A DNA stretch of 63,351 bases, taken from IMG/VR virus record IMGVR_UViG_3300032007_000021; one strand, written 5' to 3'. The position numbers and the translations under genes are program-made. The stretch is from an uncultured virus (IMG/VR IMGVR_UViG_3300032007_000021). Its lineage: Duplodnaviria; Heunggongvirae; Uroviricota; Caudoviricetes. Of the stretch, positions 1 to 63,351 are shown piece after piece. Below the pieces are notes generated by a model. The model did not search any database. It was not told the origin of the DNA and saw only the letters and a list, made by a program, of their open reading frames with translations. Numbering within the stretch: the stretch's first letter is position 1; each line of letters begins with the position of its first letter.

Positions 1-1
1 C

Positions 2-505
2 TCACAAGAAGATATAAATAATGCTAAAAAAGACCCTGATTTCATAAAAAACAGAACAGAATAGCTGAGAAAAGACTTGGATAAATTAGGCGTAAAATAT
101 ACAGAAATCGTTGGAAATTACGATGGAGAAGAACCTTCTTTTTTAATAAGTCATAATGTTGATTCAAAGATTGCTCAAAAACAAAAAGACAATACTTTAC
201 TTGTTTCTGGCAACAATTATTAGAACAACAATAAAATCATCGAAAAATTGAATCAATTAGGAAAAAAATATAATCAAGATTCGGTCGCACATTCTAAAAA
301 CGGAAAAATGGAATGGCATTATACTACAGGAGAAAAAGCTGGAAAAAGAGTGAGAGGCTTAGGTACTCAAATGTTAAATTCAGCAGATAATTATTATTCA
401 TAGGCAAGAGTTGGAAACAATGATTTTACAATGTGGAGTTGTGATATGTCACCAGCATGGTAGAATCCAAATGCTTTAGAAGATAATCCTTATTTCAAAT
501 AGTGA
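2..505 (+). CDS. 3' part of a hypothetical phage protein (5' end outside window)
   Basis: Open frame from base 2 to TGA 503-505 when 5 in-frame TAG are read through; contains GNYDGEEPSF and LGKKYNQDSV segments. Confidence 0.65.
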
Positions 506-791
506 AATTCTTCGGCATAATTTCTCTTGGAGTGCATTTACTCTTTTTACAATAAACATCTAAATCTGCCCCCTTTAAAATCAATAAACGCGCAACTTCT
601 AAATATCCTTTTTCAAATGCAACAATAAGAGGCAATCTCAAAATAAATGTAGCACCAAAATTATATTCAAGATTTTTATTTAGTATTGTTGTTTCTGTAA
701 TATGTTCTTTCAAATATTCTATATCATTGTTTTCAATTGCTTCATACAACCAAAAACTTGTGTATTCCTTTTCTTTTTTATTCATTTTCAC
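495..791 (-). CDS. ankyrin-repeat protein
   Basis: PLIVAFEKGYLEVARLLILKGADLD is an ankyrin motif. Confidence 0.75.
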   Translation of the reverse strand: MKMNKKEKEYTSFWLYEAIENNDIEYLKEHITETTILNKNLEYNFGATFILRLPLIVAFEKGYLEVARLLILKGADLDVYCKKSKCTPREIMPKNFTI

Positions 792-853
792 CCTTCATTT
801 TTGATTTGATGTTAAAAATTTTTCCAAAATAAAATTAACATCTCAAAATTTTA

Positions 854-1783
854 TCAACATTTTTTATCTTTATAACTTTTTATTAACTACAATACAGACT
901 CCTAAATATTATTCTTTTTCCCCACCTTTTCCAATATTTCAAAAATATCTTTTGATTCTTTCTTGAATTGTTTGAATGATTCTATATATTTCGATTGCAC
1001 AATATCTGTTTCAACCTTTATCACTTGTTCTTGTTTTTCAGGAAAAATATTGTCTCCTTGACTGTGTTTCAACACTTTTTCTTGTAAACTTATCTCTCTT
1101 TTTCCAAAAAACTATTCTATATTTATAATTGCAACTTTCGGCTATCTGTCTTTATCATCTCTACTTACTCTCAATAAAGACCCCGGATTGTAAAAAGAAA
1201 TTCCATATTTATTCTTTTGATAATCATGTCCATAATGCAAATGACCACTTAAAACCAAATCTATATTTTTATTGTTTATCATGTTCAAACTAATATTTCC
1301 AACATCATTATTATCTGACAATTCACTGTGAGTCAAAAATATATTTACTTTCTAACTTTTCTGTATGCTCTATGCTGTTTTATACAAATTCTGGCCGGAA
1401 TGACAAACATAAACATTACAACATTCAGTTTCTAACTTCTCATTTATTATTTGAAATTTATTGCCTAACAACTTGCTTAAAAAACCAATATTAGATTTCT
1501 ATACCGTTTGCCATCTAAATCCCATTTCATCATGATTTCCCATAATATAATAAACAGGAACATTATTTTTATCTAAAATATCATAAATTGGATATATCAA
1601 ATCATAATTCAGCTATCTGTGCCTATCAAAAAAATCTCCTCCAAACAAAATAAAAGCACATTTTTGATATTCAAACCAATTTAACGCTTCTTTCAGTTTA
1701 TTCAAACATGTTTCAAAAGCATTATCTAGTCTATTCTAATTTTTCAAACTAAAATGACTGTCTGTAAAAAAACCTATTTTCAT
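854..1783 (-). CDS. SbcD/Mre11-like metallophosphoesterase nuclease
   Basis: With TAG read-through: FTDSH, GGDFFD, MGNHD, LTH, SGHLH and NPGSLLR motifs; ends TGA. Confidence 0.8.
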
Positions 1784-1809
1784 TCACCTTCTCCTATATA
1801 TAAAAAAAA

Positions 1810-21358: not shown

Positions 21359-21832
21359 TTAAATAAAAAGCGAATTATCTTCACCTTTTCCATTAATTAA
21401 TTCTTCTCTTATTTTCATTAAAATTCTTCCAAGATAATTCTATCCCTAACCGTTACATTTCTAACATTCACATTTTCCAAAAAACTTATCATGCCACTTG
21501 TTTTTCAAAACAATCTATTCACCGTCAGTATCTATTAATTTTTGTTTTAACTATTCATTTTCAAATTTCAATCTTATCAAATCCTACATAATTTTCAATC
21601 TGACTTCCTACCAATCTTCTCTTAAAGGAAGCAAACCACCAAGTAATTTAGCTTCATTAGGCTATATCTTTCCAAAAATTCTTTTCATCCTATCCATTTT
21701 CATATTAGAACCAATATATTTCTGCGCTTGATATGCAGCCTAAACAGAATAATATTTATATCCCTAATACTATATTTCACAATACTAAAAATTACTCAAC
21801 CAGCGATTTTCACCACAAAGATAGCAAATCAT
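21359..21832 (-). CDS. NADAR family protein
   Basis: WLSNF*..I*Y*G..Y.SV*AAYQAQK, LREDW*EVR, WHDKFFG, G*NYLGRILMKIREEL. Confidence 0.85.
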
Positions 21833-22293
21833 TTTTTCTCCTTTTTATAAAGCTATATTTGAATACCTTTATTTTGCATTTCTAATTTTTTTAATATCTA
21901 TAAAACAACACTCTAATTACCTTCTCCAGATTCACACCCTATCAAATATGGCATTCCAACTCTCTTAAAATTATTTAATAAACACCAATAAAAAATGTCG
22001 TTCAAACCATACTATAAAGCATCATAATCAGTCTATTGTTCATTTGTTCCATATCTATATTGTGAATATAAATTAAATATATACTTCAAATTTTTGCTCG
22101 GAAAACAAACCTTAGAATAACTACCAAGTTTATTTCTATCGCCAAATTTTGTTTTTCTGTCCGCTATCTATGCTTCAGGAAACTTTTCTTTTAACTGTTT
22201 CGCAAATCCATCTTCCATATTCCAAAAACAATTACATTGATGTATGATTATCGAAACATCTGAATCAAATATATCTTTCTATATTATTTTCAT
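21829..22293 (-). CDS. macrodomain (Poa1p/DarG-like) ADP-ribose processing protein
   Basis: DIF...IIHQCNC...GFAKQLKEKFP, NLYSQ, TDYDAL, MPYLIGC. Confidence 0.8.
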
Positions 22294-22506
22294 TTCAATA
22301 TCTCCAAATTAAATTTTCCAAATAAAAATCGCACTTCCTTATCTAATCAGCAATTTTTTCCTGACAATAAACATTACAAAAACACATCAATTTCATCAAA
22401 CATTTTTTCAGCCTAATCAAAACATCATATTCTCTATTCAAAATACTTTCTCTTATCAACAAACTTATTCCAACCAACAAAATCTAAACACTTTCATTAT
22501 CAACTA

Positions 22507-23358
22507 TCATTTATTTTCCTTTCTCTTCAAATAATTTTCTATCACAATATTTATTTGCTAAGACAAACTTCTATCTTTATAATTTTTCAAATCATTCTCG
22601 ACACATTCAACATTATAAACATTCATTTCATGACTATATGGCTCTATCTAAAAAGTAACATTCTCATCTTGAAATGGAAAATCAATAGCTATACAATGAA
22701 AATCTTCCTAAAGAAATGTATAATTTGCAGGATTTTTTATTTTTGTTAATTCTTCTTTATATTTTTCACAAAGTTTCATCCATTCTTTAGAATTACACAC
22801 ATATCCTTTTTCAAAAATCTTCTGAACTCTGTTTTTTTGATAATCATTCAAAACCTGTATGAGTTTATCTTCAAGCTCCTAAAAACTTCCATTATTTTCA
22901 ATAGAATAAGTGATATATTTTTGAGATAAACCATTCTCTGAAACATGAGTATCATTTTCCTTACTATCGCGGGTTATATTAATCACAATACCAAACTTCT
23001 GCAAAATCATTTGAGCTTCATTATTAAATCTCACATCAGGTATCACAACACATCCGAACTAATTTTCCAATTTCAATTCCATTAATTTAACCCAAACATT
23101 CTAATCAAAATTTTTTCTAAAACAATCAGTACCAATCTTTTGTAATATCTATCTATTTGTCATCCCCCAAAACGAATTGTATCTTTGCTTACCTTCAGTC
23201 GTATAAACATCTTCTTCTTTCAATCCAAAATATTTAATACACATATCTTTTAATATGTCTGCAAAATGCAAAATTTTAGTATTTGGAAAATTTTTCTGAA
23301 TAATTCTAGCCGCAGTATCTTTCCCCACCTATTTCTTTCCACTTATTCCAATTATCAT
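22507..23358 (-). CDS. dNMP kinase with C-terminal extension
   Basis: IIGISGKK*VGKDT, FAD.LK, R*ILQKIGTD, IPDVRFNNE, HVSE, IENNGS. Confidence 0.85.
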
Positions 23359-23373
23359 AGCATTTCCTTTCTC

Positions 23374-24558
23374 TTATTTTGAAACTATAATTAATTCTTC
23401 CTCTGCTCTTGTAATAGCTGTGTACATCCATCTTCTATTGGTTTCTTTACTCTACCAAATCCCAAAATTTTCATCAAAAATCATAACATTTTTCCACGAA
23501 CTTCCCTGTGCCAAATGAGCTGTTATGCAATAACCAAAATTAAAATGAACTATATCCCGTTTATATCTTGAACTCATCAACTCTTCTTTCTATAATCCAA
23601 CAGTACCTTTTACTTTATGTTCTCCATTACAAACAATTTCATGAAAAACATCATCATGTTCCAACTAATCTATATAACAAAGCTAATAAACATCCTTTTT
23701 TACTTTGGCATCTTGTGTTAGATATACAATCTGTCCATGAAACAAGTTGTTTTTCAAATTGTTTGCCATACAAATTAATTTTTCATTTCTTTTCGGAATT
23801 TCATCACCAAAACCCTTTATTTCTCTTATAGTCTAATTAACAAGTTTTCTTTTCTTGTTTGTACCACAAATGATTTGCCCAGAACTCAACAACATTTCGT
23901 CAGTAACATCACACAAATGTACTTTTACAATGTTTTTTCCAAATTCCTCAAAAGGAATTTTCTATCCTCTTATTGCCATTTGAGATAATCTTATAATAGG
24001 ATTGTTCTACTGTTGCCTTAAAACTTGCTACATTCTATAATCCGTAACATTCATCAAATTAAATTTTGATTTTACCGGAGGCAGTTGTTGATGATCTCCA
24101 ACAAAAACAACAGGAATATTAAAACTTAACAAATCATTAAATATCTATTCGTTTATCATTGATGATTCATCAACAACTATTAACTTGTATGTTAAGAAAC
24201 TTTTCTTCTCAAACTAAAAATAAATTTTTCCATCAACAATATATTTTTTAGTATCATAAATAGCAGAATGTATTGTGTGAGTGTTCGACAAACCTTTTCT
24301 CTTTAAAGCTAAAGCCGCTTTACCAGTCAAAGCACAAAACAAAACATCACGTTCTTTTAAATTTAATTCTTCACACAAATAACTCAATAAAGTAGTTTTT
24401 CCACTTCCTGCAACACCACCTATAACAATATGTTGTTTTTTTGACGTATCTTTCCACCATGTTTTTATCAAACAAATCACATTTTTTTGGTCTTCTGAAA
24501 ACTAAGAAAAATCTTTAACTTCTATTGCAAAATTATTTTTATAAAACTAATCTAACAT
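23374..24558 (-). CDS. RecD/Dda-like SF1B DNA helicase
   Basis: GVAGSGKTT, VDESSM, GDHQQLPPV, VLRQ, YCITAHLAQGS, YTAITRA. Confidence 0.9.
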
Positions 24559-26887: not shown

Positions 26888-27433
26888 TTATCTCTATTCA
26901 AGCAATCTCTTTAAATCAAACTCATGTTTCGTCTCATCTTCCAAAATCTACTTGAACAGTCTCTCTGTAACATAATCTTTCAAGCCCTTAGCATAATTAA
27001 TGATGTCTTGATAAAAAATTCTGGCATCTCTCTCAGCATCAATCAAAATATTCAATTGCTACTTTGGATCAGACGTAGAAATAATTTGCCATGTATGACC
27101 AACAGAACTAATCTCATTTAAGTTAGTAACAACTCTACCACCAAGCTCTTCTATTCGATGTGCTATCTTCTATAAATGCTATGCCTATTCTGTCATATGC
27201 TAATTATATTCATCTAAACAATCCACTCTTCCCTATCCTCTTACAACATGAGAAGCAGTGAAGTATTGCCATGTCGCCGTTGTCTCATCACAAAAAGCAA
27301 CAATCAATTTTTCAACCAAACCCTAAACTGTAAAAGTCTTCTTCTATTCATTCTAATCTATAATTCCTTCTAACGCTTCAATCATCTTACTTAAATCAGC
27401 TTTCTATTCTTCATACGATTTAATCATCTTCAT
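26888..27433 (-). CDS. ferritin-like (DpsL/bacterioferritin) protein
   Basis: DE.TA.WQY, *HMTE*A*H..KIAHRIEELGG, AERDA..FY, D.VT, ILEDETKH di-iron motifs. Confidence 0.8.
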
Positions 27434-30326: not shown

Positions 30327-31349
30327 TTACATTTTTTGCGAAAAAATCACACAAGCCTGAAATACCATGAATTTCAAACTCGGCAAAGGGTTTGGATCAA
30401 CAAAATATCCAACATCAAAAATCTTAAAAGCCTATAAATATTGAACAGATTTTTTAGTCAATCCATTCATCTATAATTTCTTGGTTAAATATGTCCTCAT
30501 CATTCTTCTAAAACCTTCACAATCTATATTCTAATTACTATTTATCTATTGTATAAATCCATTAAAATCTCCTTTCTAAACCATTTGACATAACTTCCAA
30601 TAATCTATTTTCTTTTCTCCAGATATTTGAGAAAGACTATCTATTCCACCATTTACAAATTGATTGAAATTATTTAATATTTCTCGATAACTCATTCCTT
30701 GAACATAATCAAAAAATATTTGCTTCTGCTAACTTGTCAGATTTGCCATCTACTGTGAACATACTCCGCTCAACAATTCGGAAATATCCTTCTTGGAAGG
30801 TAATTTGAACTCATATTTTTCACATCTATTCTGCAACGTCTTTATTAACTTATTTGATTCTGTAGTACAAAATATCATATAAGTATTGGCAGGAGGATTT
30901 TCCAAAGGTTTTAACAACAAATTTTGAGAAGATGATGTTAACATTTGAGACTCATCCATAATCCAAATATTATTTCTTCCAGTTAAAGATGTCTGATACA
31001 TCTACTAAACAAGTCTATCTATATCTTCTTTTGTCCCCGTACTACCAATATTAATATCATGTATATTCAAAGCCCTTTCAGCCAATGCTTGTTTACAACT
31101 ATCACATTCCAAACAAGGTTCAACAGTATCTCCTTTCTAACAATTCAAACCCATAGCCAAAATCTTGCTAATGGTAGTTTTTCCACATCCTGATTGACCA
31201 ACAAACAATAAATTTGTAGAACGCTACTTTCCCTGCTACATCCATTTTATCAAATTCTTTTTGATAGATTCGTTCCCTATTACCTCACTGAACTTTCTTG
31301 GTCTATATCTCTATATAATCTGTTTCTAACCTCTTCTTATTACACCCAT
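30327..31349 (-). CDS. dnaX: clamp loader, DNA polymerase III gamma/tau-like
   Basis: RYRPRKFSEVIG, GQSGCGKTT, LNC..PCLECDSC, IMDESQML, LLKPLENPP, TLQNRC. Confidence 0.9.
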
Positions 31350-32143: not shown

Positions 32144-32374
32144 TTATTCTCCTTCATTCACTTTAATAATTTCCATTTTTTTATTCTTTATATCAATCAA
32201 ACTTACAATCTGTTCTTCACTCTTTATAATATAATTGTTTAAACCTCTCGAAAAATATCTATTGTCAAATCTAATAAATATTCTCTTGAATGGATTTGCA
32301 ATATATACTGCATAACCTTCTCCTACATGTCCCTTCAAAAATTCATCTGCTTGTTCAATATTCATCTCATTCAT
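32144..32374 (-). CDS. hypothetical protein
   Basis: Track ORF; RBS and first codons identical to those of thyX. Confidence 0.55.
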   Translation of the reverse strand: MNEMNIEQADEFLKGHVGEGYAVYIANPFKRIFIRFDNRYFSRGLNNYIIKSEEQIVSLIDIKNKKMEIIKVNEGE

Positions 32375-32415
32375 ATTTATTCTCCTTTTTTATTTAATAA
32401 ACATTCAATACAATA

Positions 32416-32444
32416 AAAACTAACGGTAAATAACCGTTAGTTTT
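32416..32444. terminator. hairpin terminator
   Basis: aaaactaacggt-aaata-accgttagtttt. Confidence 0.65.
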
Positions 32445-32468
32445 AACAGAAACAAAAAATAAGAAACA

Positions 32469-33194
32469 TTAATATATTTTAAAATCTTTAAAAAACTCCC
32501 TCTTATTTACTTCATAAGGCAAATTCTCTGTTATTTCCCCGTTAATATTTACTTTGTTCACAAACACTGGAATATTATAATGTTTACACTCTTCAATCAC
32601 ATCTTTAATCCAAGAAATTTCACAATTCCTTCTGTTTTCTCCAGTCTCACATCCTACAACAATCCAATTAATCAATCCGGTTTTCAAATATTCTTCAATA
32701 GAAATTTTTTCCAGCATAGGCTCAAGAGAAATAAAACGATATTTAATTTTGTCTGTCATCAGCAAATCGTCAATTCTCTTCTTCCTAATATTAGTTTCAA
32801 CCGTTACCCCAAACATCATTCGTTCAAAATCCAAATATCCAACATTATCAAACAAACAAGGATTTTCAAAATAATCTTTCAGCAAGGATGACCTTTTAGT
32901 AAGAATCAAAAAATGTTTTTCTTTTGCTTCATTCATCTTTCTGAAAACTTTATCTAAATATCTTTCAGAAATAGAAGGATGAAACAAATCACTCTGTCCA
33001 GAAACAAAAATTGTTTCTTCTCCAGATTCAAAAGAACTCATCAGTTGTTTTTTATTTTCACGAATATCAAAAGTCAAATTCTTTTCACACTTTTTTCGTT
33101 TTTCAACAAGCTCTCTTGCAAAACAATTTTCACAACCTTCACTACAAGGACTACAACCAAGTGTCGGATTCCATGTTCTATTATAATATTTCAT
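32469..33194 (-). CDS. Gp37Gp68/DUF5131 radical-SAM-like protein
   Basis: TWNPTLGCSPCSEGCENCFA, SDLFH, ILTKR, FISLEP, WIVVGCETG. Confidence 0.85.
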   Translation of the reverse strand: MKYYNRTWNPTLGCSPCSEGCENCFARELVEKRKKCEKNLTFDIRENKKQLMSSFESGEETIFVSGQSDLFHPSISERYLDKVFRKMNEAKEKHFLILTKRSSLLKDYFENPCLFDNVGYLDFERMMFGVTVETNIRKKRIDDLLMTDKIKYRFISLEPMLEKISIEEYLKTGLINWIVVGCETGENRRNCEISWIKDVIEECKHYNIPVFVNKVNINGEITENLPYEVNKREFFKDFKIY

Positions 33195-33209
33195 TTACAT
33201 TCTCCTATC

Positions 33210-33887
33210 TTAAACACATTCTTCTTCAACATCAACAATCCAAAAACGATTTCTGTTAAATTTTCTCTTTTTACCTTCATCATCAATAAAACAAACAAAA
33301 TTTATATCGGAATCGTTTTCAATGATCTTATACATTTTGTTCTCAGTCAAATTACAAAGATTACTGTCATCCTTACAAAAAGCCATTTTGATAGTCTTAA
33401 CAACTTGTTCAACACTTTCTTTTTTACATTCAGATGTACTGATTTCAGAATTACTTTCTTCACAAGAAAAACTCTTTTTATGAGACATATCCAAAAATCT
33501 ATGTGTAACTTCTTGAATTTTATCATAAACCTGTTGCTGTTCAATAATACTGAGCGGGAAACCACATTCAGCACACTCTTTTGAAAAACATCTAAAAGAC
33601 CTTGATATTTGAGTGAAAACAACCGTAAATTCATCAATAGTTTCTTTAGAATAAGAAGAAAAATTTTTGAAAAAAATTTCTTCTGTAACACCTGTCAGAT
33701 TAACACCTTCAATATCATGACTTGTAAGTTCTTTCTTGGAAAATCTGCAAGGAGAAATTCCAATTCTCTTCATAACCCCGAAACCAAAACAACGGTCATC
33801 TTTAACAAGTTTAAAAATCACTCTCACAAAATTAGGCGAACTAACAACGTTCTGATAAAACCGATTAAAAAACACTCCAATTTCCAT
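33210..33887 (-). CDS. hypothetical early protein
   Basis: TAG-free ORF after the repeated leader. Confidence 0.65.
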   Translation of the reverse strand: MEIGVFFNRFYQNVVSSPNFVRVIFKLVKDDRCFGFGVMKRIGISPCRFSKKELTSHDIEGVNLTGVTEEIFFKNFSSYSKETIDEFTVVFTQISRSFRCFSKECAECGFPLSIIEQQQVYDKIQEVTHRFLDMSHKKSFSCEESNSEISTSECKKESVEQVVKTIKMAFCKDDSNLCNLTENKMYKIIENDSDINFVCFIDDEGKKRKFNRNRFWIVDVEEECV

Positions 33888-33960
33888 TTTCAAATCTCCT
33901 TTGATTTGTTTAGATTTTTTGGTTACATCCTCTATATAACAACAAAAAATTTTGATTACA
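33888..33960 (-). promoter_or_regulatory. repeated ~72-bp promoter/leader element
   Basis: Near-identical to the copies at 29076, 35183 and 37110. Confidence 0.8.
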
Positions 33961-33961
33961 A

Positions 33962-35182
33962 TTATCTGTTACCAAACCACATGTTTTTTTCCTTTTTATT
34001 ATAAAAATTCATAACATCAAAACTAAACACATTTCTAATCGTTTCATTCCATCCTGCTTTTTCCCGGTCTTTCAGTGAAGAAAAAACACTCCTGAAAATA
34101 GCAAGCGGAACAAAATCTTTAATTTTCATTTTTTCAAACATCATTGCCAAATCACAAACAGAAACAATAGAACGAGTAGAAAAAAGAGTTTCAATTTTAC
34201 TTTCAACCCACTGTTTTCTGATTTCATCTCTAAACCGAATCATTTTATTGACAATCTCTTCATCCTTAAATTTTTTTGTCATAATTTCTTTTTCTGCTTC
34301 AAGATTAAAACCAAAATGATAAGTAGCTGTAATTCTGTTAAGAGTAGAATCATCCATAATATTGTTCTGAGCAGTATAGCCCATTTCACCTTCATTGTCA
34401 GTTCCCCTACCAACAGTATTGCCAGCAAGAAACATTGCAAAACCAGGATGAGATTTCACAATTCTTCCTCCATCTCCAGAAATTTCAATACTTCTGGAAC
34501 AACCTGCTTCCCTCGGAATTTCCATAGCTCTGTTAAAAACAGCAAGAAAAACAGAAGGATTAATTGCGGCAAATTCATCAAGGAAAAACAAACCAGGCTT
34601 TCCAATTACTTTTGGATTTCCCGTACCATCAGTAACCACTTCTCCATATTCATTATAAAGAATCTGATTACCCTTTTCATCAACTTCAGTACCTTCAATA
34701 AAAGCCCGATAAAGTGGCCCTTTGTTCCATTCAATTTTATTCTGCCCACTTTCTTTATCAATCACAATGGTCTTGTCTCCCAGAAAATCAGAACTATCCA
34801 TGTCTTCACGCCCATTCACCTGATAAATCTTACTAAATCCTGCAATATTAGCTATTTCATGAACAAACTCAGATTTTCCCGATCCAGCACTTCCATACAG
34901 AACAACGTTTGCGCTCTTACAATGTTCATAATCATTTGCACAATTCATAATAGCCTATACTTCATCAGCAAAAGATGGCATGATATAATTGTGCTTCTCA
35001 ACATTATTTTTACGCACAACTCGATCATATTTCATGAAAATCACATCATCATTATTGTTAACCATAACAATACCTTTTCTAAGGAAGTCTTCTTTTCTGT
35101 TCTCAATTTTTTTCGCTTCTTTCTTGGAAAGAACGACATCTTTTTCTCTTGCTTCCTTAACGATTTCTTCAAACTCTTTCAT
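33962..35182 (-). CDS. MoxR/CobS-like AAA+ ATPase
   Basis: GSAGSGKS, FFLDE, HPGF...AGNT.GRG, DDSTLNR, STR; N-terminal ORF joined at TAG 34955. Confidence 0.85.
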
Positions 35183-35254
35183 TTCAAATCTCCTTTGATT
35201 TGTTTAGATTTTTTGGTTACATCCTCTATATAACAACAAAAAATTTTAATTACA
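35183..35254 (-). promoter_or_regulatory. repeated ~72-bp promoter/leader element
   Basis: Near-identical direct repeat. Confidence 0.8.
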
Positions 35255-35261
35255 AAAATTT

Positions 35262-37109
35262 TCATCTCTTGGAAATAATCTCTTTGAACGAATTGAAAAA
35301 ATTTTGTCCAAGTTCTTTAATAGATTCAAGATAAACAAAATTATCCTTTCCATAAAATTCTTTAGGCTCAAAAGTACCAATACCAAAAGCATAAACTTCA
35401 ACACCATTTGATCTAACAAATTTAATTGCTTTTTTAAGGTGTTCTCTCAATTCAAATCTATGCGCTCCACAATCGGGCAGACCATCAGACAAAACAAAGA
35501 TAATTTTTCTCTTCGTTCTCCGTCTGAAAATTCTATTATAAGCAATCAGCAAGCTTTCTCCATCAGCATTGTGAAATTCTGACTGAATATTGCCAAGTCG
35601 ATATTTACAAACATTATAATTTTCATTATAAGTCTTGTATTCTTTTATCTTCAAAGGACAACTTCTGGAAAATTCTGAATTGCGAGTAGAAAAATCTACT
35701 GTCGTAAAACCAAGAACTTCAAAATCAATATTAAGTTTAGAAAAGACCTCTGAAAAAGCAATAGTCATAGACCTTAATTCATTTATCATGTGATAAGTTG
35801 ATCCACTTTCATCAACAAGCAGAGTAACAGAAACATCAAGATCAATTCCATCCTTTTTTCGATAAAAAACTTTTTTAGTCAAAGATTTTCCTACAATAGC
35901 AAGTTTCTTTTTGTCAATTTTACCATGTTCAAGATTTGACATTTTTTGAATACGAGAAAGCCATCTCAAATATGCTTCAGTATAACTGGAAAGTTTATCA
36001 ATAGAGGATGAAATTATTTCTCTGGAAGTCTTGTAAACATCTGCTTTATCTTCCGGCTTATAAATCATATCACAATCTTTTAATGCAGTATATCCTCTCC
36101 ATTCTTCCTTGGATTCTTTACAAATATTTTTAATTTTTTCTTTCAAAATCTCTTCGATCAAATCTTTATCTTCAAAATCTTCGGAAAAATCTTTGCTTTC
36201 TTCACCTTCACTTTTTTCTGAAGATTCAGTTTCTTCACTTTTATTATTATCTTCTTCATCTTCACTTTTTTCGTAAGAACTACTGCTTTTTGCAGAATCA
36301 CTTTTATTCTTTTCATTTTTAGAAGAATTGTTTTCTTCATTTTTAGAAGAATTGTTTTCTTCATTTTTAGAAGAATTGTTTTCTTCATTTTTAGAAGAAT
36401 TGTTTTCAGAATCACGATCTTTCTTTTCGCTGTTTTTAGATTCATCAGAATTTTTATCTTCAGAACCATATTCATTTTCTTTTTGATTATTTTTCACATC
36501 TTCAAAAATTCTAATCAGCTCATCAGCAATTTTAGGAATACCAGCAAAACCCGCCTTATTATCAAAATCAGACAGACTTTTATATTTCTCAAAAACATCT
36601 TTTGATTTTTCAAAATATTCTCGGCCCTTTTCAGACATATTCCACAAAATAGAATGTCCTTGACTATTAATCATCAAAGCACAAATAGCTTCATTAACAG
36701 GCTTTAAGTTTTCAAGATTATCAGAAAACCTCTTACCAACAAGTTTAGACATTTCTTCGCCAAAACTATAAATATCGTTTCTCAGAACATTATTAATATC
36801 AGATACAGCTTTCTCAATCCTGCAATCCTCCAGAGCATTAACCAAATTTGCTTTCAAAGGACTCCACGATTCATCTTTATTTGCAGGAGTCAGTCTTGCG
36901 TGAGCTGCTTCATGGATATTTTTTCCTCTTACAATAATGTCATCCTTTTCATCTTTAATAATACCAAACATAGGACTGTAAATAATTTTGTTGTCAATAT
37001 CACAATGAGGAACATCATCATTGGAAATATAAGAATGTTTCCAATTTTTAGAATCTTCACCAATAACGATAGAATCCAGTGCCATGTTTGCAGAAATTCT
37101 TTGACTCAT
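35262..37109 (-). CDS. CobT-like vWA-domain partner of the AAA ATPase
   Basis: HEAAH and NALED metal motifs, acidic linker, MIDAS LVDESGS...LSDGLP. Confidence 0.85.
   Translation of the reverse strand: MSQRISANMALDSIVIGEDSKNWKHSYISNDDVPHCDIDNKIIYSPMFGIIKDEKDDIIVRGKNIHEAAHARLTPANKDESWSPLKANLVNALEDCRIEKAVSDINNVLRNDIYSFGEEMSKLVGKRFSDNLENLKPVNEAICALMINSQGHSILWNMSEKGREYFEKSKDVFEKYKSLSDFDNKAGFAGIPKIADELIRIFEDVKNNQKENEYGSEDKNSDESKNSEKKDRDSENNSSKNEENNSSKNEENNSSKNEENNSSKNEKNKSDSAKSSSSYEKSEDEEDNNKSEETESSEKSEGEESKDFSEDFEDKDLIEEILKEKIKNICKESKEEWRGYTALKDCDMIYKPEDKADVYKTSREIISSSIDKLSSYTEAYLRWLSRIQKMSNLEHGKIDKKKLAIVGKSLTKKVFYRKKDGIDLDVSVTLLVDESGSTYHMINELRSMTIAFSEVFSKLNIDFEVLGFTTVDFSTRNSEFSRSCPLKIKEYKTYNENYNVCKYRLGNIQSEFHNADGESLLIAYNRIFRRRTKRKIIFVLSDGLPDCGAHRFELREHLKKAIKFVRSNGVEVYAFGIGTFEPKEFYGKDNFVYLESIKELGQNFFNSFKEIISKR
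36317..36407. repeat. 24-bp tandem repeat (encodes ENNSSKNE), about 4 copies
   Basis: ttttagaagaattgttttcttcat repeated. Confidence 0.9.
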
Positions 37110-37183
37110 CTTTCAAATCTCCTTTGATTTGTTTAGATTTTTTGGTTACATCCTCTATATAACAACAAAAAATTTTAATTACA
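37110..37183 (-). promoter_or_regulatory. repeated ~72-bp promoter/leader element
   Basis: Near-identical direct repeat. Confidence 0.8.
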
Positions 37184-37187
37184 TTTT

Positions 37188-37481
37188 TTATTTCATATCA
37201 TCATCAAACATCATTAGCGTCAAATTTGGACAACTACCATTTACCTCTCCATAAGGATAAAAGCCAATCTTTTTTATCTTTCCACAAATATCAATATCCT
37301 TCCTCGATTTTTTCTTACAAAGAATTTTATATCTATCTTCAGACAAATCTATTTTTTCACTAAATTCACAATCTTTACAATTATCAAAAATTGTTTCTAT
37401 TGTTACAACTCTCTTTATTTTCAACATCTCTTTTTTCTTCAAAATATCAAAATTTACTTTTCTTCTTTCACTTCTTGTCAT
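37188..37481 (-). CDS. hypothetical protein
   Basis: Track ORF with GGAG RBS. Confidence 0.6.
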   Translation of the reverse strand: MTRSERRKVNFDILKKKEMLKIKRVVTIETIFDNCKDCEFSEKIDLSEDRYKILCKKKSRKDIDICGKIKKIGFYPYGEVNGSCPNLTLMMFDDDMK

Positions 37482-42018: not shown

Positions 42019-43146
42019 TCAAATTTCTCCAGATTCAACAATTTCATTTTCTTCCTGAAATTCATTCACAATCTATTCATCACTCATCGTTTCAACTTCT
42101 ATCTGTTCTTCTTTCAATTCCACAATATTTCCTTTCAATTTATCTTCAAGTTTCTTTTTCATTTCTTCGTATAATTCAGGTTTCTGTTCAAGTAATTCTT
42201 TAAATTTTGTTAAACCTTGAGCAATATTTTCACCTTCATAAGCTATCCAAGCACCTTTCTTTTGAACAATACCTCTCTAAATTATCCCTTCAATTACTGT
42301 TGCTTTATTGTCAATACCTTTACCAAAAGAAATGATAAATTCACCTTTTTTATACGGAGGAAATGTTTTATTCTTTGTGGTTTCTGCTTTCACTCTAATG
42401 GAAACTTTTTCTTTATTGTCTCCTGTACCTTCCTCAACAGCTCCAATCTTGGAAAATTTAATTCTAATGCTGTCATAATACTTCAGAGAATTTCCACCAG
42501 CAACCGTCTATGGATTTCCCATCATCACCCCAATTTTATTACGAATCTGATTTGTAAAAACAATAGTTGTACCATATTTTGCTGCTATTGGAACAAGTTT
42601 CCTTAAAGACCTACTCATCATTCTGGCTTGTACTCCCATCAATTGTTTTCCATAGTCTTCTTCCTCTGTTTCTGATCTTGGAACCATAGCCGCAACACTA
42701 TCAACAACAATCAAACTACAAGAACCCGTTTCAATCAATCCCTGAACAATACCAAAGGCATCTTCTCCTGAATCTGGTTGTGCCAAAACAAGTTCTTCAA
42801 TATTTACCCCCACACTTTTTGCATACGAATTATCCGAAGAATATTCAGAATCTATAAATGCAGCGAACTTATTTGGATATTTCTTTTGGGCTTCGCTAAT
42901 AGCATGATAACACGCTGTTGTCTTACCACAACTTTCTTGACCATATAATTCAACTATTCTTCCTACTGGCCATCCTCCACCAGTAATTTCGTCCAAAGCA
43001 ATACTGCCCGTTGGGATTCTCTCCAAAGGCTATATTTTAGTATTTCCAAGAAAATTCACAGAACCCCTACCAAACTTTTTCTGTAACTCACCACATATCT
43101 TATCTAATACCTAAAATTTTTTCGCTTTAATTTTATCTTCACTCAT
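42019..43146 (-). CDS. recA: RecA recombinase
   Basis: IPTGSIALD, GQESCGKTT, IVVDSVAAMVP, NQIRNKIGVMMGNP*TVAGGNSLKYY, KNKTFPPYK. Confidence 0.97.
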
Positions 43147-44294: not shown

Positions 44295-45626
44295 TTATAC
44301 AAAAATATATGACTTTATATAAGATTTATCTGAATTTAATCTATAAGAAACTCTAATATTTTTATTTTTATCAGAGAAGAAATTTCTGTAACACATCTTA
44401 AACTTCTTTTTAAGAAATTTAGAAACCTCACTCCAAGTTGGAACTTGCTAAAAATTAGAACTTATCTCTTTCTTCCAACGATTCGATAAATCCTCAAGTT
44501 TTACCTTGGTATCTCCAAATTTCTTTAAATCTTCATCTTTCCTTTTTCCAATCTAAATTGCGGCAGCTATAGAATCAATTTCTTTCTAATTCTATAATTG
44601 TCCTTTAATTGAACTATATCCTGCAAAAACTTTTTGCACTTTAATTCCTATCAAATTACATCTTTTCTTTAAATTATTAACAAAACAATTTCTTAACCAA
44701 TCATTATTACAATTTTTATTAAAACTTTTTCCTTTCTTTTTATCTGAACTTTTTATATTTAAATCCTACAAAACCAATGTCTATACTTTATATTGTTTTA
44801 ATATCTACGATATTCTTTTGCTTATTTGTAATGTTTCATATTTTCTTTTATTATACAAATATTTTCTATATTCAGCCTTGTTTTCTTTATCTTTATAAGA
44901 TTTCTTTTTATCTAAATCATTTAAATCTTTTAACGAAAACACAGTTTTTAATAAATGTTTATTATTATCTGATATAACTAAAGCTATATAATTAGGATTT
45001 TGGTCTATTGATGCTATTCTATTGTTTTGGGGATTGTATTCTTTATCTTTTAATATTATCTAATCAAATATTAACCAAACATATTCTTGATTTAACTAAA
45101 CAGTATAACTAAAAGATTTTTTATTTTTATCATAAATTTCTTGCAATTGATTCAATAATTCTTTTTGATTTTTACTTACAATATATTCCAAACAAAAATG
45201 TTTACTTCTATTTTGTTTAAATATTATTTTATCATTTTTCAAATCCAAGTCAACTTTTCTGTTCCCGTTATCCTATTTTCTTCCTATAATTCTCAACGGC
45301 AACATTCTTAAATTTATAATTTGTTCTTTTGTTAGAAAACCATTAAGATATTTTTTATAATTTGTTTTCCCGCCAAATATTACTTTCTATCCATTTGTTT
45401 TATAAATTTGTTTTGATTTAGCAACTGCAAACTAAATAATTGAATAATCCAACTACTAAATATTATTCATATTTACTTTTACTAATTTTATAACATCAGA
45501 ATCTTTAATAATTCCATTATTATCAGAATAACGATTATAAGCAAATCTAACAACATTATTAAATTGCTTCAATAATCTCTAATATCCTTTTTGTTCTTCT
45601 TTTAATTTTAATTTAATCGTTATCAT
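44295..45626 (-). CDS. tnpB: TnpB (RuvC-type RNA-guided nuclease family)
   Basis: RFAYNR, IFGGK, GNRK; RuvC-I SIDQNPNYIA, RuvC-II LVL*DL, RuvC-III IDSIAAAI*IGKR. Confidence 0.8.
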
Positions 45627-48650: not shown

Positions 48651-48725
48651 TGGCACCCCCAGTCGGTTTCGAACCGACATTAGCGGAGTTAGAGTCCGCT
48701 GTCCTAACCGTTAGACGATAGGGGC
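48651..48725 (-). tRNA. amber suppressor tRNA (anticodon CTA) with a tRNA-Glu-type body
   Basis: GCCCCTA TC GTCT AACGGTT AGGAC A GCGGA CT-CTA-AC TCCGC TAAT GTCGG TTCGAAA CCGAC TGGGGGT G CCA. Confidence 0.93.
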
Positions 48726-52605: not shown

Positions 52606-52681
52606 TGGCAGCCCTTGAAGGAGTCGAACCCTCACAGACGCGGGACCAAAACCCGCCGCGCTACCATTACGCAAAAGGGCT
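52606..52681 (-). tRNA. tRNA-Gln(TTG)
   Basis: AGCCCTT/AAGGGCT stem, GCGGG-TT-TTG-GT-CCCGC, GCCA. Confidence 0.85.
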
Positions 52682-54712: not shown

Positions 54713-54717
54713 GTTTT

Positions 54718-57860: not shown

Positions 57861-58047
57861 ATTATTTTTCTTCTTTATTTGTTAATATTTTTTAATTTTT
57901 TACTATATAAAAATATAAACAAATTATTTAGTTTTTCTGTTTTTAAGTAGAAAATCCATTAAAATTAACTTGTTTTATTTTATATTTTTAAACTCTTTTT
58001 AATGATTTCTATATAACAAATCTAAAATATCAAAACAATTTTCTTTT

Positions 58048-58785
58048 TTATGCTTTTAAGTGTTTTTCATATTTTGAAGCATAAGGGAAAAGACCAAACA
58101 ATCTGTCTCTCAATCCATTATAAAAAGCCTCATCATTATACCCCGCAAACATTTTTTCAATATTCTATGTTTTTACAGACTACGCATCTTCAAAAGTAGC
58201 TTTCAAAACTCTTTGCTCATACCCAGATTTATAACCAAGTAAACCACAGAACAAAGTGTTGATGCTATAACCAATATCACTTGTATAATCAACACCTTTC
58301 ATAACTTCAAGCAACTCTTTCTTTGGATACTTAAACGGACAATGACTTTCAAAATTAAAACTCAACTATAAACCTTTTGATTTCAAATAATCAAAAGTTC
58401 TTGCAACTCTCCTTGGCCAGATATGATTACTTGACGCAAATGCTTCTCGATCTCTCGGATTATATACAGGACACAAAAACTGAAAACTAAACGGCATCAA
58501 AAACACTTCATCATCACTGCAAAAAATAAAGTCATCTGACAAGTCTTGAACATTCTAACATACATAAAGAACTTTATTAATAATATTCCCATCCTTATTA
58601 TGTTCAAGACCATCTTCAAACTATATAAAATCAACTTCTTGTACCCATTCTGGTTTTCTGGGACCAACTATAATAATCCTTCCAACATCAGATATATTTC
58701 TTTCAATGCTTCTCAACAAAATTCTCAACTCATCATCATTACTATGACTCTCTTTACTCAAAGGAATAATCACATCATACAACAT
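58048..58785 (-). CDS. Stealth-like (hexose-1-phosphate transferase-like) protein
   Basis: DVII, DELRILLRSIERN, IIIVG..PEW, LSDDFIFCSDD, ESHCP. Confidence 0.6.
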
Positions 58786-58840
58786 ACTCTTTTTCTCCTT
58801 TCTTGTTTATAAGAATATAATTTATATTACAACAAAAAAT

Positions 58841-58869
58841 AAAAAAGAGAGAAATTTTTTCTCTCTTTT
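58841..58869. terminator. hairpin terminator
   Basis: aaaaagagagaaa/ttttctctctttt inverted repeat. Confidence 0.55.
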
Positions 58870-58901
58870 AGAACAAAAAAACAAATTATTTTTTACTTAT
58901 T

Positions 58902-59192
58902 TTACTTAATGGGATTTTTGGTTGTCTTACCAACAAAAACAAAACGTCCCTTTTCACGAGTATAAACTTCATAAACAGTAGAAGGATTACTATTCATCTT
59001 CCCACACTTACAAGTACATTTAACACTTGTAGTTTTAACTGATGATTCAGATTCAACAGCGGCAATCTTTTCAGCAAATTCCTTCTTAATCTTTGCACGT
59101 CCTCTGGAATCATACTTGTTCAGCTTTGCAAGCTTGCGAGTTTCATTTGCCTTGTAAGCCCCAATTTTACGGTTCTTTTCTTTTTCAGTCAT
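58902..59192 (-). CDS. small basic protein
   Basis: Lys/Arg-rich, TAG-free ORF with RBS. Confidence 0.65.
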   Translation of the reverse strand: MTEKEKNRKIGAYKANETRKLAKLNKYDSRGRAKIKKEFAEKIAAVESESSVKTTSVKCTCKCGKMNSNPSTVYEVYTREKGRFVFVGKTTKNPIK

Positions 59193-59396
59193 TTTCCTTT
59201 TCCTTTCTTGGTTAGTTTACTATTTACTCAAAAAAACATATTTTGAGCGTGACTTACTTATAAGTAACATCTTTTAAAAAATGCAACAAAAATTTTCAAA
59301 CTTATTTTCTTGTTCTTCACAAGCATTTCTATTACCAAATATTTCTCCGCAAGACTAACATCTAAAAAAACAAATTTCTTTCATTTCAAATAGTTC

Positions 59397-60281
59397 TTAT
59401 TTCCATCTGTCTCTAACACTTTCAGGTATATATTCGCGTATTTTTTCTTTAATTTTCTCATCAATTTTAGAGTATGGCATCATAAAACCACCCGATTCTT
59501 TAATCTTAAAATATGTAGCATCTTTTATATACATGCCACCAAAATCACTAACTTCAATTTTAACATCAACTTGTGCTTTATTAAAACTAATCCAAAAATC
59601 TCCATCCAAAAAATTTCTAATTGAATTTCCAAAATTTATAATATTTCTCATCGTATCAGCAGTACCTTGATGAGTTGTAAGTAAAATTCTATCCGGAATT
59701 TTTCTCTTTCTTTGATTATTTTGAATAATAGCAACTTTATAATCATTTAGTACCCAAACCAAATGAATGTTTTCTGCTTTATATCCAACACTAATTAATC
59801 TATTAGCAAGATTTTCAAATTCTGCATAAGAACTCAATGTTTTATCAAAAATTAAATTTGGTTTTCTATCATCAGCAGCCATTCTTGCAGAATACATTAC
59901 ATAATCAATATATTTCTGATTTAAATTAATATCTTTCAAATATCCGTGAAGCATTTCAACTTGTTCAGAATTATTAAGTTTCCAATTAGAAATATCAACT
60001 TTACAAACTTCTTTAATTTTTTCTTGAATTTTTTTGTTTGTAATTGCAAAATCTTTCAATTTATCAACATCAATTCTTTTTGCATCAAGCCCAAATAATT
60101 TTGAAATCTGAAAACCTTTTCCACTTCCTCCTCCACCGCCAACAATAACAACATTGTTATATGCAGGATAATTTTTCTTTCCAAAAACTATTTCTTTAGC
60201 AACATATACATTTCCTTCTTTTGGTAAAGAATATTCAACTTTGTTAAGACATTCAGCAATTTCTTCTAAAAAATTTTTCAT
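59397..60281 (-). CDS. zeta-toxin-like P-loop kinase
   Basis: GGGGSGKG Walker A, IDVD, LIFDKT, NNQRKRKIP. Confidence 0.7.
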   Translation of the reverse strand: MKNFLEEIAECLNKVEYSLPKEGNVYVAKEIVFGKKNYPAYNNVVIVGGGGGSGKGFQISKLFGLDAKRIDVDKLKDFAITNKKIQEKIKEVCKVDISNWKLNNSEQVEMLHGYLKDINLNQKYIDYVMYSARMAADDRKPNLIFDKTLSSYAEFENLANRLISVGYKAENIHLVWVLNDYKVAIIQNNQRKRKIPDRILLTTHQGTADTMRNIINFGNSIRNFLDGDFWISFNKAQVDVKIEVSDFGGMYIKDATYFKIKESGGFMMPYSKIDEKIKEKIREYIPESVRDRWK

Positions 60282-60302
60282 ATTGTTAATCCTTTATCCA
60301 TA

Positions 60303-62114
60303 TTATAAAGCAAAAAATTCTTGTTCACTAATAATCTTAATCCCAAATTTCTTTGCTTTATTCATTTTAGACGATGTACTATTTACATCAGCACAAACTA
60401 AAATATTTAAATCTTTAGAAACACTATCTACTGGAACAAATCCTTTTTCTCTTGCTTTATCTTCCATTTCTTGTCTTGTATATGAACTCTTTCCTGTAAA
60501 ACAAATCTTTTCTCCTTCTTCAATTTTTTCTTCTTCTACATCAAACAATGACAACAATCTCAAATTTCTTTCTCTGTTTTTATTAAGACCTTCAATTACA
60601 TTCTTACTTGTAATCTCTCCAATACCTTCCATTCCACAAATATCAGCAATAGTTAGAGATTTCAAAATATAATCCAAATTAAACGATTTTAGAAGCGTTT
60701 TAGATACACTTTCACCAAGGTTTGATATATTTAATGCCTTAAGGAATAAACTCGCTTTAACACACTTTATTTTAGCTAATTCGCACATAATATTATCTTG
60801 CATGGTTTTGCCAATCCCATCAATTCCTATCAAATCTTTTTTCTGTATCATCAAGAAATCATAAAGATTATCAATGTCAGTCTTTTTCATAATGGAACGA
60901 ATTACACTCTCTCCAATTCCAAAAATACCAAGACAAGTAAGTTGCCAAGTAACATTTTTCACTTTTCCTTCAAAACAATGTTCATTCAAACAAACAACAC
61001 TATTATCATCAATTCTTATATCACTTCCACAGAAAGGACACTTTTCTATGCTTACTATCTCCCCTCTCGGATTAGATTCTTCAATATTTACAATATAAGG
61101 AATAACCATCCCCGCCCTTTCAACCACAATTTTGTCTCCTATTGCAATATCTCCGTGAACAATATATTTACCACCATCACTTCTTTTTGTAAGAGATATA
61201 GACGCTTTAGTGATTGTAACTCCCTGTATATCTACGGGATCAAAAACAGCAACAGATGTAATTCTGTTATCTTTACCCATTCCCCATTCAATACCCACCA
61301 ATTTCGTAACAGCTTGTTCATTTGTAAACTTCAAAGCAATTTGATTTTTGGGATGATGTTCTGTTCTGCCAAGACTATCTCCATATTCTTTATCTTTCAA
61401 CTTGATAACAATACCATCCATAGGATAATCATATCCATTTATCTGTTCTTCTATCTTTTCAAATTTTTCATCAAATTCTTTCATCTTTATCTCAAAAGAA
61501 TTTTTGTCATAATCTACAAAAGTCAAAACCGCACCTTGCTTAAAATAAAAATCAGCATCTTCATTACCAACAATACCACTCACAGCATTTCTACTGTTTT
61601 TGAAAGTCTTTCCAGATTTACTTTTAATCTTTCTATATACAGTATTAAAATCATTATTCGTAATTACAATTTCTCCAAGAACATAATCTTTTGTAACATC
61701 AACAATTTTATTGCTTTCAATTCTTATCATCTTCAATTTATCAGAAATATTGCTTCCTTCATATCCGTTTCCTCTGGTAGATAATTTACCTTCTTCCAAT
61801 TTTCCGGAAATACCATCATATTTTGGCTGAATCAAAAACAATTCTTCTTCGTTTCTTGAAACTTGTTCCATCCATTTTTTCAACTATTCTTTTGTATAAA
61901 CCTTATTTAGGGATAACATTGGAACCTTATGAACAATCTTTTCCCCAACAACAACAGGTTCATTAACTTGACAAACCAAATCATTGTTAGGATCAATTTT
62001 TCTTAATTCCTCAACCAATTTATCATATTCAACGTCACTAATATCGGACACACCATCTTTCCAATATTTTTCATTAGCCCCTTCAATCTTTTCAATCAAT
62101 TCTTCTTTGTTCAT
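60303..62114 (-). CDS. ligA: NAD-dependent DNA ligase
   Basis: ISDVEYD, HKVPMLSLNK, KYDG, STRGNG, DGIVIK, zinc finger, BRCT; two track ORFs joined by a single TAG at 61884. Confidence 0.95.
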
Positions 62115-62395
62115 TTCTCTTCCTCAAGTTTAGATTTCAGAAACACCAATTCTTTTTCAAATTCTTTCACAAACTTGTCTTCACTTAATTCAAACACCTT
62201 CCTAAATATTCTTGCTTTATCAACAAACAAAACAAGGAAAAACTTGTCTTCAAAATCGCTTTTGTGAAAATTAAACTCAACTTCTTTTCCGGCAAAGTTG
62301 AATTTCAAAACATTCAAACCTTCTATCTTATAGCCGTTTTCATTAAAATCAAAAACATCAATTTTATTTTTCTTTAAAATCTTTTCAATATTCAT
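62111..62395 (-). CDS. hypothetical protein
   Basis: Track ORF with ATGA overlap into ligA. Confidence 0.6.
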   Translation of the reverse strand: MNIEKILKKNKIDVFDFNENGYKIEGLNVLKFNFAGKEVEFNFHKSDFEDKFFLVLFVDKARIFRKVFELSEDKFVKEFEKELVFLKSKLEEEK

Positions 62396-62444
62396 TTTTC
62401 ATTTCCTTTCTTTTTATTCACCTTCTACATAACAAAATAAAATT

Positions 62445-63351
62445 TTATTCACATTTTTTTCGCTTCTTCCATCTTTCTACCAAACTATTTGCTCCTTCAT
62501 TCAAAGCATACTAATCAAAAACTTGTTTTTCTTTTTCAAACTAATTTTCTTTCTAACTAATCTCTTGCATAATGTCATTAACTTTCTGTTTCAGTTCATT
62601 TCCATTGTTCTTATAAATCTATTTTAAATCTATCGCACTTCTCATCTGACCATCTGGCTTTGTCTCATCCATCATCTACATTGTTTGTTTCTATACAGCC
62701 TATCCAAAACTATCTTTCTACAAATCTTCTTCAACTTTTCCTATTGTCACATACATCTTGCAACGGAAAGTAAATATGCTTCCATCTCTGTTTTTTGGAC
62801 AACAAATCACTAACTTATGTATTTTCCTTTCCTCTTCACTCCTTTCTCCTACTCCAACAGTAGCAGTTTGATTGACAATACCTAACAAACAGTTCGCACT
62901 ATGTACCTTTTGTTTTGTACCAAACACATCAGAAGCACTTAAAAACGGTCTTTCTTTTGTTTCCTGCTTTTCTGCTTGAATACCAGCTTGTGTACAAGTA
63001 AGAACCGGACAATCACAGTTTATCGCTAATTGTTTTAAATCCTTTGTAACTTTACCTTGTTCATCATTTTCCGAATATGCTTTATGTGTTGGAGACATCA
63101 AATCCATATAATCAACTATTATTACATCTATATGAACACCTTTCAATTTCAACTCTGCAACAGCTCTTTCTATCATTGTAGCATCTGTTGCTTGCGGAAA
63201 TTCATAAATATATAATCCTCCAGCTCTCACCCTCTGCTATATATTAAATCTTTTCCATTTTTCAAATTCTGCATCACTAAACATTCCAAGTTTCAATCTT
63301 CTATAAGGTATCTATGATTCCAAAGACTGATATTTTGTCCGCATCTGAAAT
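62445..63351 (-). CDS. DnaB-like replicative helicase, 3' part
   Basis: IIVDYMDLM, LKQLA, TCTQ, KNRDG; C-terminal tail runs through TAGs to TAA. Confidence 0.85.

Follow-up and report, generated by a model that had tools for sequence, protein, structure and literature searches.

The window analysed here is the whole of a 63,351-nt stretch of DNA from an uncultured virus (IMG/VR record IMGVR_UViG_3300032007_000021), and its genes very probably follow a phage code that assigns TAG to glutamate and keeps TAA and TGA as stops, the reassigned codon being read by the phage's own Glu-type transfer RNA with the anticodon CUA, tRNA(CUA). That TAG stands for glutamate had been proposed in an initial annotation of the same sequence, and the proposal was supported by the residues aligned with TAG and by the predicted identity of this tRNA. 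The window (positions 1 to 63351) is a portion of the genome of a large cattle-gut phage of about 187 kb (187,352 bp in the identical metagenome record behind locus L132), and the analysis was confined to it, the other ~124 kb lying outside. Its G+C content was 29.4%, and all of its genes, together with all 12 tRNA genes, were located on the minus strand. The composition of this coding strand was extreme, with 8.5% C vs 21% G (G being 8.5% on the plus strand), and CTC (9 occurrences) and TAC (59) were rare codons in the window.

When TAG was read through and translated as X, 89 non-overlapping open reading frames (ORFs) of at least 60 aa on the minus strand covered 90.4% of the window. These ORFs contained 378 in-frame TAGs in 19,224 codons, with at least one TAG in 65 of them, and ended in either TAA (53 ORFs) or TGA (36 ORFs) without a single in-frame TAA or TGA. 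The genes described in the initial annotation as broken only by TAG and ending in TAA or TGA were therefore recovered throughout the window. The comparison of coding density that it had suggested gave a coverage by stop-to-stop ORFs of at least 100 codons of 0.51 under code 11, rising to 0.91 once TAG was counted as a sense codon. Coverage was even higher (0.97) when TAA was taken as sense in this AT-rich DNA; hence ORF coverage by itself fails to pick out TAG, and it is homology that does so. Pfam matches (E ≤ 1e-4) were obtained for 35 of the 88 translated ORFs scanned, and the domain matches spanned TAG positions. The proteins matched included RecA, an NAD-dependent ligase, a ClpB/ClpC-like ATPase, ClpP, ClpS, the clamp loader, the beta clamp, a DnaB-like helicase, RuvC, IF3, ThyX, an enzyme of the IMPDH/GMP-reductase family, a thioredoxin-reductase-like enzyme, a ferritin/Dps-like protein, NADAR, a dNMP kinase and the products of two resolvase genes. 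The TAGs were evenly distributed along the genes (Kolmogorov-Smirnov p=0.45), as expected of a sense codon. Read as Glu, TAG would make up about 19% of the Glu codons (378 of 1,972, next to 1,330 GAA and 264 GAG). The nucleotide 3' of TAG was A in 50% of cases vs 40.5% after GAA/GAG (p=7e-4). An effect of the 3' context on amber suppression is known from E. coli genetics, and the excess of A may reflect selection for a suppression-friendly context.

The amino acid corresponding to TAG was assessed by a Codetta-like test (own script), in which MAFFT alignments with Henikoff-weighted columns were used and the log-odds for each amino acid were summed per codon. Deep alignments were built for the DnaX-like protein (119 homologs), the RecD-like helicase (119), NADAR (6), the ferritin-like protein (144) and RecA (6). 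Over the 47 usable TAG columns, glutamate reached +39.4 nats, glutamine -9.8 and aspartate -41.8, and E was the top call in each of the five families taken singly. When only homologs with at most 45% identity were kept, the 42 remaining TAG columns gave +25.6 for E and -17.5 for Q. As a control, all 34 sense codons with at least five columns in the first three families were called correctly, including CAA/CAG as Q and GAA/GAG as E; the control for Gln consisted of these CAA and CAG columns, not of a phage with TAG as Gln. The NADAR word search returned seven proteins only, since X residues interrupt the words on which it relies. When the beta clamp was searched for in 41 Bacteroidota genomes, six genomes matched at 20–25% identity; these matches were too weak and were left unused, and RecA alone as a query of viral contigs yielded one distant locus.

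A second data set was checked at the DNA level and consisted of 90 loci that the DnaX-like alignment or RecA had retrieved from viral and metagenome contigs. Among the 53 loci of at least 6 kb from the two scans with the DnaX-like alignment, a signature of recoding was observed only in the window's own record, L132 (coverage 0.56 vs 0.95), the next largest gaps in coverage being 0.10–0.11. A tblastn comparison of all window ORFs with the other loci, all of which were relatives with the standard code, gave 150 high-scoring segment pairs in 25 genes, covering 147 TAG sites. At these sites E scored +74.3, followed by D (-55.0), K (-77.5) and S (-86.6), with Q outside the top four, and in the same set the call was right for 53 of the 54 sense codons. 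With one vote per TAG site, E received 60.8 of the 147 votes and Q 8.7; counted in the same way, GAA/GAG sites gave E in 39% and Q in 4%, and CAA/CAG sites gave Q in 32%. The TAG sites thus behave like GAA/GAG sites and unlike CAA/CAG sites. The alignment with Gln expected of a code-15 phage was not observed at the TAG columns, and in all data sets that were built, the column analysis proposed in the initial annotation found the TAG columns enriched for Glu rather than Gln.

Several near-invariant glutamate columns were spelled TAG in the window, all on the minus strand. In the ferritin/Dps-like protein (ORF 26891-27433), codon 83 (27185..27187) is a TAG at a di-iron ligand position where 136 of the 144 homologs have E. 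In the DnaX-like clamp-loader gene (30330-31349), which carries 14 TAGs, the column of codon 200 (30750..30752) was occupied by E in 54 of 55 bacterial DnaX proteins. Of 64 phage relatives, 59 have E there and five have Q, and E was also read at 53 of the 57 loci checked at the DNA level. The TAG in the GNP-X-T motif of RecA (42508..42510, codon 213 of 42022-43146) aligned with E in five of six homologs translated from DNA. In TnpB copy 1, a further TAG (VL-X-DL, 44766..44768) falls on the acidic residue of RuvC-II, which we take to be the catalytic Glu of the family; E was present in both of the related loci, and the TnpB paralogue at 55961-57259 has VIEDL at this position. The motifs quoted in the initial annotation were all found in the translations, with X for TAG: GNPXTVAGGN in RecA, SVXAAYQ and DWXEV in NADAR, TEXAXH in the ferritin, KKXIK in IF3, NRXILQ in the dNMP kinase, TKEXLKKW in the ligase, and GXAII. 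The same was true of its paralogue pairs, namely VLXDL and AIXIG vs VIEDL and SIEIA in TnpB, DNRSFXTS vs DNRLNELS and WKXC vs WKEC in ParB, and CXNKDRL vs IENKDRL in TnpA.

A gene for tRNA(CUA), as carried by code-15 phages, was found at 48651..48725 on the minus strand (ARAGORN; Rfam tRNA model, 58.3 bits). This amber suppressor has a tRNA-Glu body and an ordinary cloverleaf with G1·U72, U11-A24, U13·G22, an 8-nt D-loop, a 4-nt variable loop, U35, A37, A46, no residue 47, G73 and an encoded CCA; no second tRNA(CUA) was detected in the window by ARAGORN or Rfam. A blastn search against 50,697 phage records matched 41 of them, and of the 40 matches listed, 35 were annotated as tRNA-Glu, two (in one phage) as tRNA-Gln and three were unannotated. 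The 18-nt D-arm recurred in bacteria at no fewer than 120 loci, and 117 of the 117 matches listed were tRNA-Glu genes (64 with anticodon UUC, 53 with CUC), the best overall identity to a bacterial tRNA-Glu being 57 of 72 aligned bases. The suppressor shares with bacterial tRNA-Glu(CUC/UUC) this identical D-arm, G1·U72, the 4-nt variable loop, U35 and A37, and differs from them in its anticodon, CUA instead of YUC. Searches with the suppressor gave no match in E. coli genomes, and the exact D-arm combined with CUA occurred in no viral contig.

The first base pair separated the two tRNA classes. Among 131 tRNA-Glu collected, 71 had G1-C72 and 54 had G1·U72 (G1 in 125 of 131), and all of the 19 tRNA-Gln had U1-A72, A1-U72 or U·G, with G1 in none. 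In 24 other tRNA(CUA) genes, from 25 IMG/VR contigs found with a relaxed pattern, position 1 was U or A without exception, so that all 24 showed a Gln-type first pair, unlike the G1·U72 of the suppressor described here. The phage's ordinary tRNA-Gln(UUG) (52606..52681, minus strand) also differs from the suppressor, with A1-U72 and a 7-nt D-loop; its blastn search against the phages gave no match and hence provided no control. The pair 1/72 is a clean Glu/Gln discriminator among all tRNAs collected. The lengths of the D-loop and of the variable loop were rejected as discriminators, since the classes overlap. According to the available text of PMC9976931, the E. coli tRNA-Glu determinants include U11-A24, U13·G22, A46, the absence of residue 47, U35 and A37; C36 is a strong determinant for glutamyl-tRNA synthetase (GluRS), U1-A72 marks tRNA-Gln, and G1-C72 is an antideterminant for the Gln route. 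The augmented D-helix of this set (U11-A24, U13-G22:A46, no 47) is complete in tRNA(CUA). From the anticodon-loop set (U34/C34, U35, C36, A37), C34, U35 and A37 are kept and position 36 is A.

Two further observations were made on tRNAs. An 85-nt tRNA with the anticodon GUU (Asn; 16298-16382, minus strand) has a long variable arm, U1-A72 and G73, and its nearest annotated phage tRNAs were tRNA-Leu in 8 of the best 10 of 171 matching records; AAT/AAC columns still read Asn despite this odd tRNA. In a family of viral contigs from IMG/VR (L226, L232, L237, L243, L246 and L247), two tRNA(CUA) genes lie next to each other; one of the two is 91 nt in length, has A1-U72 as its first pair and carries an insert that follows the anticodon arm. 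ORF coverage in these contigs rose by 0.07–0.14 with TAG as sense.

The use of TAG between genes was independent of any database and pointed in the same direction. In 57 genes of at least 150 codons, the density of TAG was negatively correlated with that of GAA/GAG (Spearman -0.37, p=0.004) and showed no significant correlation with that of CAA/CAG (+0.16). Pooling TAG with the Glu codons changed the dispersion from 2.17 to 2.12, and pooling it with the Gln codons changed it from 1.52 to 3.98. TAG therefore trades off with Glu codons, not with Gln codons, in database-free agreement with TAG as Glu.

The TAGs were also present in independent sequences. An IMG/VR record of 12,112 bp (G001) was 99.68% identical to positions 52069-63351 of the window (11.3 kb), with 36 differences, only one of which removed a TAG (TAG to TCG, 62512), the remaining TAGs of the overlap being kept. 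At 52084 and 61445 the window has CAG and the record TAG; no difference of GAG or GAA vs TAG was found between the two. At least part of the stretch 20331-24558 was detected in each of the 22 public runs listed; these came from 14 studies, and most carry the label of bovine or goat gut. Contigs from an independent sample and study (X3) spanned 156 in-frame TAGs; among the variant positions, the 40 listed (with 174 more outside the listing) all fell elsewhere than in a TAG. Contigs from an RNA library (X7), identical to the window, spanned 15 in-frame TAGs, which argues against editing, with DNA carry-over possible in that library; these contigs denote presence in the library rather than transcription. 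The initial annotation had named systematic G-to-T errors at GAG as a way in which its claim could fail, and this was not what was seen, as the TAGs were kept in the independent record and runs.

In the mechanism proposed, the decoder would be a tRNA-Glu(CUC)-type molecule in which position 36 has changed from C to A. A GluRS, either of the host or encoded elsewhere in the 187-kb genome, would charge it with Glu, and its Glu-type first pair (G1) and body would exclude the Gln route, whether by glutaminyl-tRNA synthetase (GlnRS) or by GluRS plus amidotransferase. The resulting Glu-tRNA(CUA) would compete with release factor 1; that it outcompetes the factor, and that it has any role in timing, is inferred. 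Genes free of TAG could be expressed in a cell of the uninfected type, and TAG-rich genes, including parts of the replisome, would require the suppressor.

Several points weigh against glutamate. The determinant C36 is necessarily lost in a CUA anticodon, so that charging with Glu would not be guaranteed. The D-stem GUCU/AGGAC is not exclusive to tRNA-Glu and is common to some tRNA-Gln, and when the 5' half of the suppressor was compared by blastn with a sample of 31 Bacteroidota genomes, a tRNA-Gln(UUG) ranked first, ahead of three tRNA-Glu(CUC). The other ~124 kb could encode a GluRS, a release factor or a second, Gln-type suppressor. The support that the initial annotation had seen in paralogues within the window held for the motif pairs it quoted and was weak over all pairs: at 58 aligned TAG positions, GAA/GAG stood opposite in 10 cases, AAA/AAG likewise in 10, TAG in four and CAA in three. 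Finally, if TAG were Gln, neither of the two CAG/TAG differences between the strains would change the protein. This last point is a weak one, since codon 224 of the ligase is variable in the alignable relatives and CAG to TAG is a transition on a coding strand poor in C. The 36 differences are too few for a GAG/TAG change to be expected among them, and too few to separate E from Q.

Of the alternatives to decoding as glutamate, the one that fared best, improbable as it is, is mixed decoding, in which TAG would be read mostly as Glu with some Gln through partial amidation, a second Gln-type suppressor or a near-cognate host tRNA-Gln. In its favour, G1·U72 is a weak pair, distinct from both the antideterminant G1-C72 and the determinant U1-A72 in the available text of PMC9976931, CAG/TAG polymorphisms exist, other phage contigs carry two adjacent suppressors, and the window covers about one third of the genome. 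However, many ordinary tRNA-Glu (54 of 131) have G1·U72, a share of Gln would be harmful at the near-invariant Glu columns that are spelled TAG, and the suppressor is the only tRNA(CUA) within the window.

Ordinary code 15, with TAG as glutamine as assumed in public translations of these proteins, was considered slightly less probable still. It is the choice made in the database copy of the DnaX-like protein, it would account for the two CAG/TAG differences, Q was the second-best call in the deep alignments, and the best Bacteroidota match of the 5' half of the tRNA is a tRNA-Gln. Nevertheless, Q remained behind E by about 49 nats over the 47 columns and was missing from the four best calls at the 147 DNA-checked sites. 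The bias of the databases, where Q is partly an artefact of the same translation, runs toward Q and not toward E. The trade-off of TAG with Glu codons rather than Gln codons and the G1 of the suppressor, seen in none of the 19 tRNA-Gln, stand against glutamine as well.

Pyrrolysine is hardly credible: the only indication was the ARAGORN label, given to any CUA anticodon, and the columns call E. No Pfam match to Pyl synthesis or PylRS was found in 88 window ORFs. tRNA-Pyl has a small D-loop and lacks the GG D-loop and TTCGAAA T-loop motifs, whereas the suppressor folds as a canonical cloverleaf whose 8-nt D-loop contains GG and whose T-loop reads TTCGAAA. Sequencing or assembly errors, RNA-edited sites or stops in decaying pseudogenes are just as hard to credit, given 378 TAGs vs zero in-frame TAA or TGA in 89 ORFs, 264 GAG codons still in use, a dedicated tRNA(CUA), and TAGs kept in the independent IMG/VR record, in contigs of another sample and study and in RNA-library contigs (with the carry-over of DNA mentioned above).

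Glutamate at TAG is otherwise known from codes 30 and 31, the nuclear codes of peritrich ciliates and Blastocrithidia, in which both TAA and TAG are Glu. The phage code resembles these in reading TAG as Glu and differs from them in that they are eukaryotic and nuclear and have TAA reassigned too, whereas the decoder here is a virus-borne tRNA of bacterial type. TAA was not read as Glu in the window, as it ends 53 of the 89 ORFs and none of them needs read-through of TAA. With the code-15 gut phages (crAss-like, Lak, Garnet/Topaz and the phAss-1 group) the phage shares a large genome of the lytic type from an animal gut, TAG in many genes, its own tRNA(CUA), TAA and TGA as stops and a use of TAG that is uneven between genes. 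It departs from them in the amino acid, Glu here and Gln there, and in the suppressor, which is built on tRNA-Glu; those in the available part of the phAss-1 paper were typed as Gln by tRNAscan-SE. It also departs from the pattern described for other recoded phages in that its replisome genes are rich in TAG. The available text of the Borges et al. preprint gives only TAG as Gln and TGA as Trp where the codes of phage and host differ, and in that of a 2026 survey of jumbo phages TAG recoding is termed code 15. No report of a phage or prokaryote with TAG as Glu was found in the full-text literature searched, with subscription journals and supplements outside that search, which agrees with the suggestion of the initial annotation that a phage code giving Glu to TAG alone may not have been described before. 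Recoding of stop codons in phages by means of a suppressor tRNA was already known; what differs here is the amino acid and the ancestry of the tRNA.

Proteins of the window are present in a public protein collection, three of them recognised as full-length ORFs. The copy of the clamp loader (P0001; 30330-31349) has Q at all 14 TAG positions and was therefore translated with code 15; under TAG as Glu, these would be 14 wrong residues. Two other entries, P0241 (21362-21832) and P0248 (26891-27433), were matched to window ORFs by identity and length (92% and 93%, respectively). Since window proteins are stored with Q at TAG, Q in their database relatives is suspect too. P0002 has Q at two of five Glu-conserved DnaX columns, and P0122, P0123 and P0125 have Q at the only Glu-conserved helicase column; a wider set (P0002, P0007, P0008, P0065, P0122, P0123 and P0125) has Q where other homologs have Glu. 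In these relatives, Q at Glu columns probably represents mistranslated TAG codons for Glu of related large phages. The contigs of the closest database relatives reach up to 228 kb, and the standard-code relatives with DNA were 40–47% identical in the clamp loader. The Q residues at Glu-conserved columns suggest that TAG as Glu is a property of a clade and not a one-off. It is likely that the window represents a lineage of ruminant-gut phages of ~190–230 kb with a suppressor derived from tRNA-Glu and a TAG-as-Glu code new to viruses and prokaryotes, whose proteins are publicly mistranslated with Gln, catalytic glutamates included.

The share of TAG among Glu-type codons was uneven across genes (chi-square 355, 74 df, p=2e-38) and ranged from 0 to 64% in genes of at least 90 codons. 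It was zero or near zero in ClpP, the ClpB/ClpC-like ATPase (1/67), the ligase (1/57), the CobT-like protein (0/69) and DUF5131, and about half in the clamp loader, NADAR, TnpB copy 1 and its resolvase, and one helicase-like ORF. Replisome genes were rich in TAG, with 14 in the clamp loader, 10 in the DnaB-like helicase gene and six in the clamp. A TAG-rich block on the minus strand (21362..24558) contains NADAR (12 TAGs), a macro-like protein (7), the dNMP kinase (8) and the RecD-like helicase (12). In a TAG-poor block on the same strand (32147..37481), one TAG was found in ~1,660 codons; its genes encode a 76-aa ORF, DUF5131, a 227-aa ORF, an AAA_5 ATPase, the CobT-like vWA protein with 69 GAA/GAG and no TAG, and a 97-aa ORF. 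This uneven use would fit a control of timing, by analogy with what has been proposed for code-15 phages, and it also fits genes recently acquired from standard-code cells that have no TAG yet.

Other features of the window were noted, all on the minus strand. The cargo is unusual for a phage, with ClpP, a ClpB/ClpC-like ATPase with ClpS, IF3, a ferritin/Dps-like protein and NADAR (Pfam; genes listed at 14715-15281, 18572-19078, 21362-22293, 26891-27433 and 38389-40888), and the NADAR gene adjoins a 154-aa ORF without a Pfam match. Two pairs, each of a serine-resolvase-type gene adjoining a long ORF, were found at 44298-46288 and 55961-57860. The long ORFs, called TnpB in the initial annotation and without a Pfam match, are 34% identical over 435 aa and the resolvases 32% identical over 157 aa; the first pair is TAG-rich (15 and 9 TAGs) and the second has fewer (7 and 3). 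Three paralogous ORFs without a Pfam match (16902-17516, 48910-49251 and 49642-50127) have a common N-terminus, MKIRNGYVSNSSSSSF.

Recoding in phages has been treated as two cases, TAG as Gln and TGA as Trp, plus TGA as Gly where it matches the host, and gene callers, databases and structure predictions build on these. If TAG is Glu in this lineage, public sets would carry an incorrect amino acid at about 2% of the positions in such proteomes, in many cases at glutamates that bind metal or act in catalysis, and a simple rule based on position 1 of the suppressor together with column analysis would tell the codes apart. Suppressors would then be recruitable from a second isoacceptor family, one whose synthetase reads the anticodon, which raises the question of the tolerance of GluRS for A36, and the phage tRNA would be a natural, possibly orthogonal, amber suppressor of Glu type.

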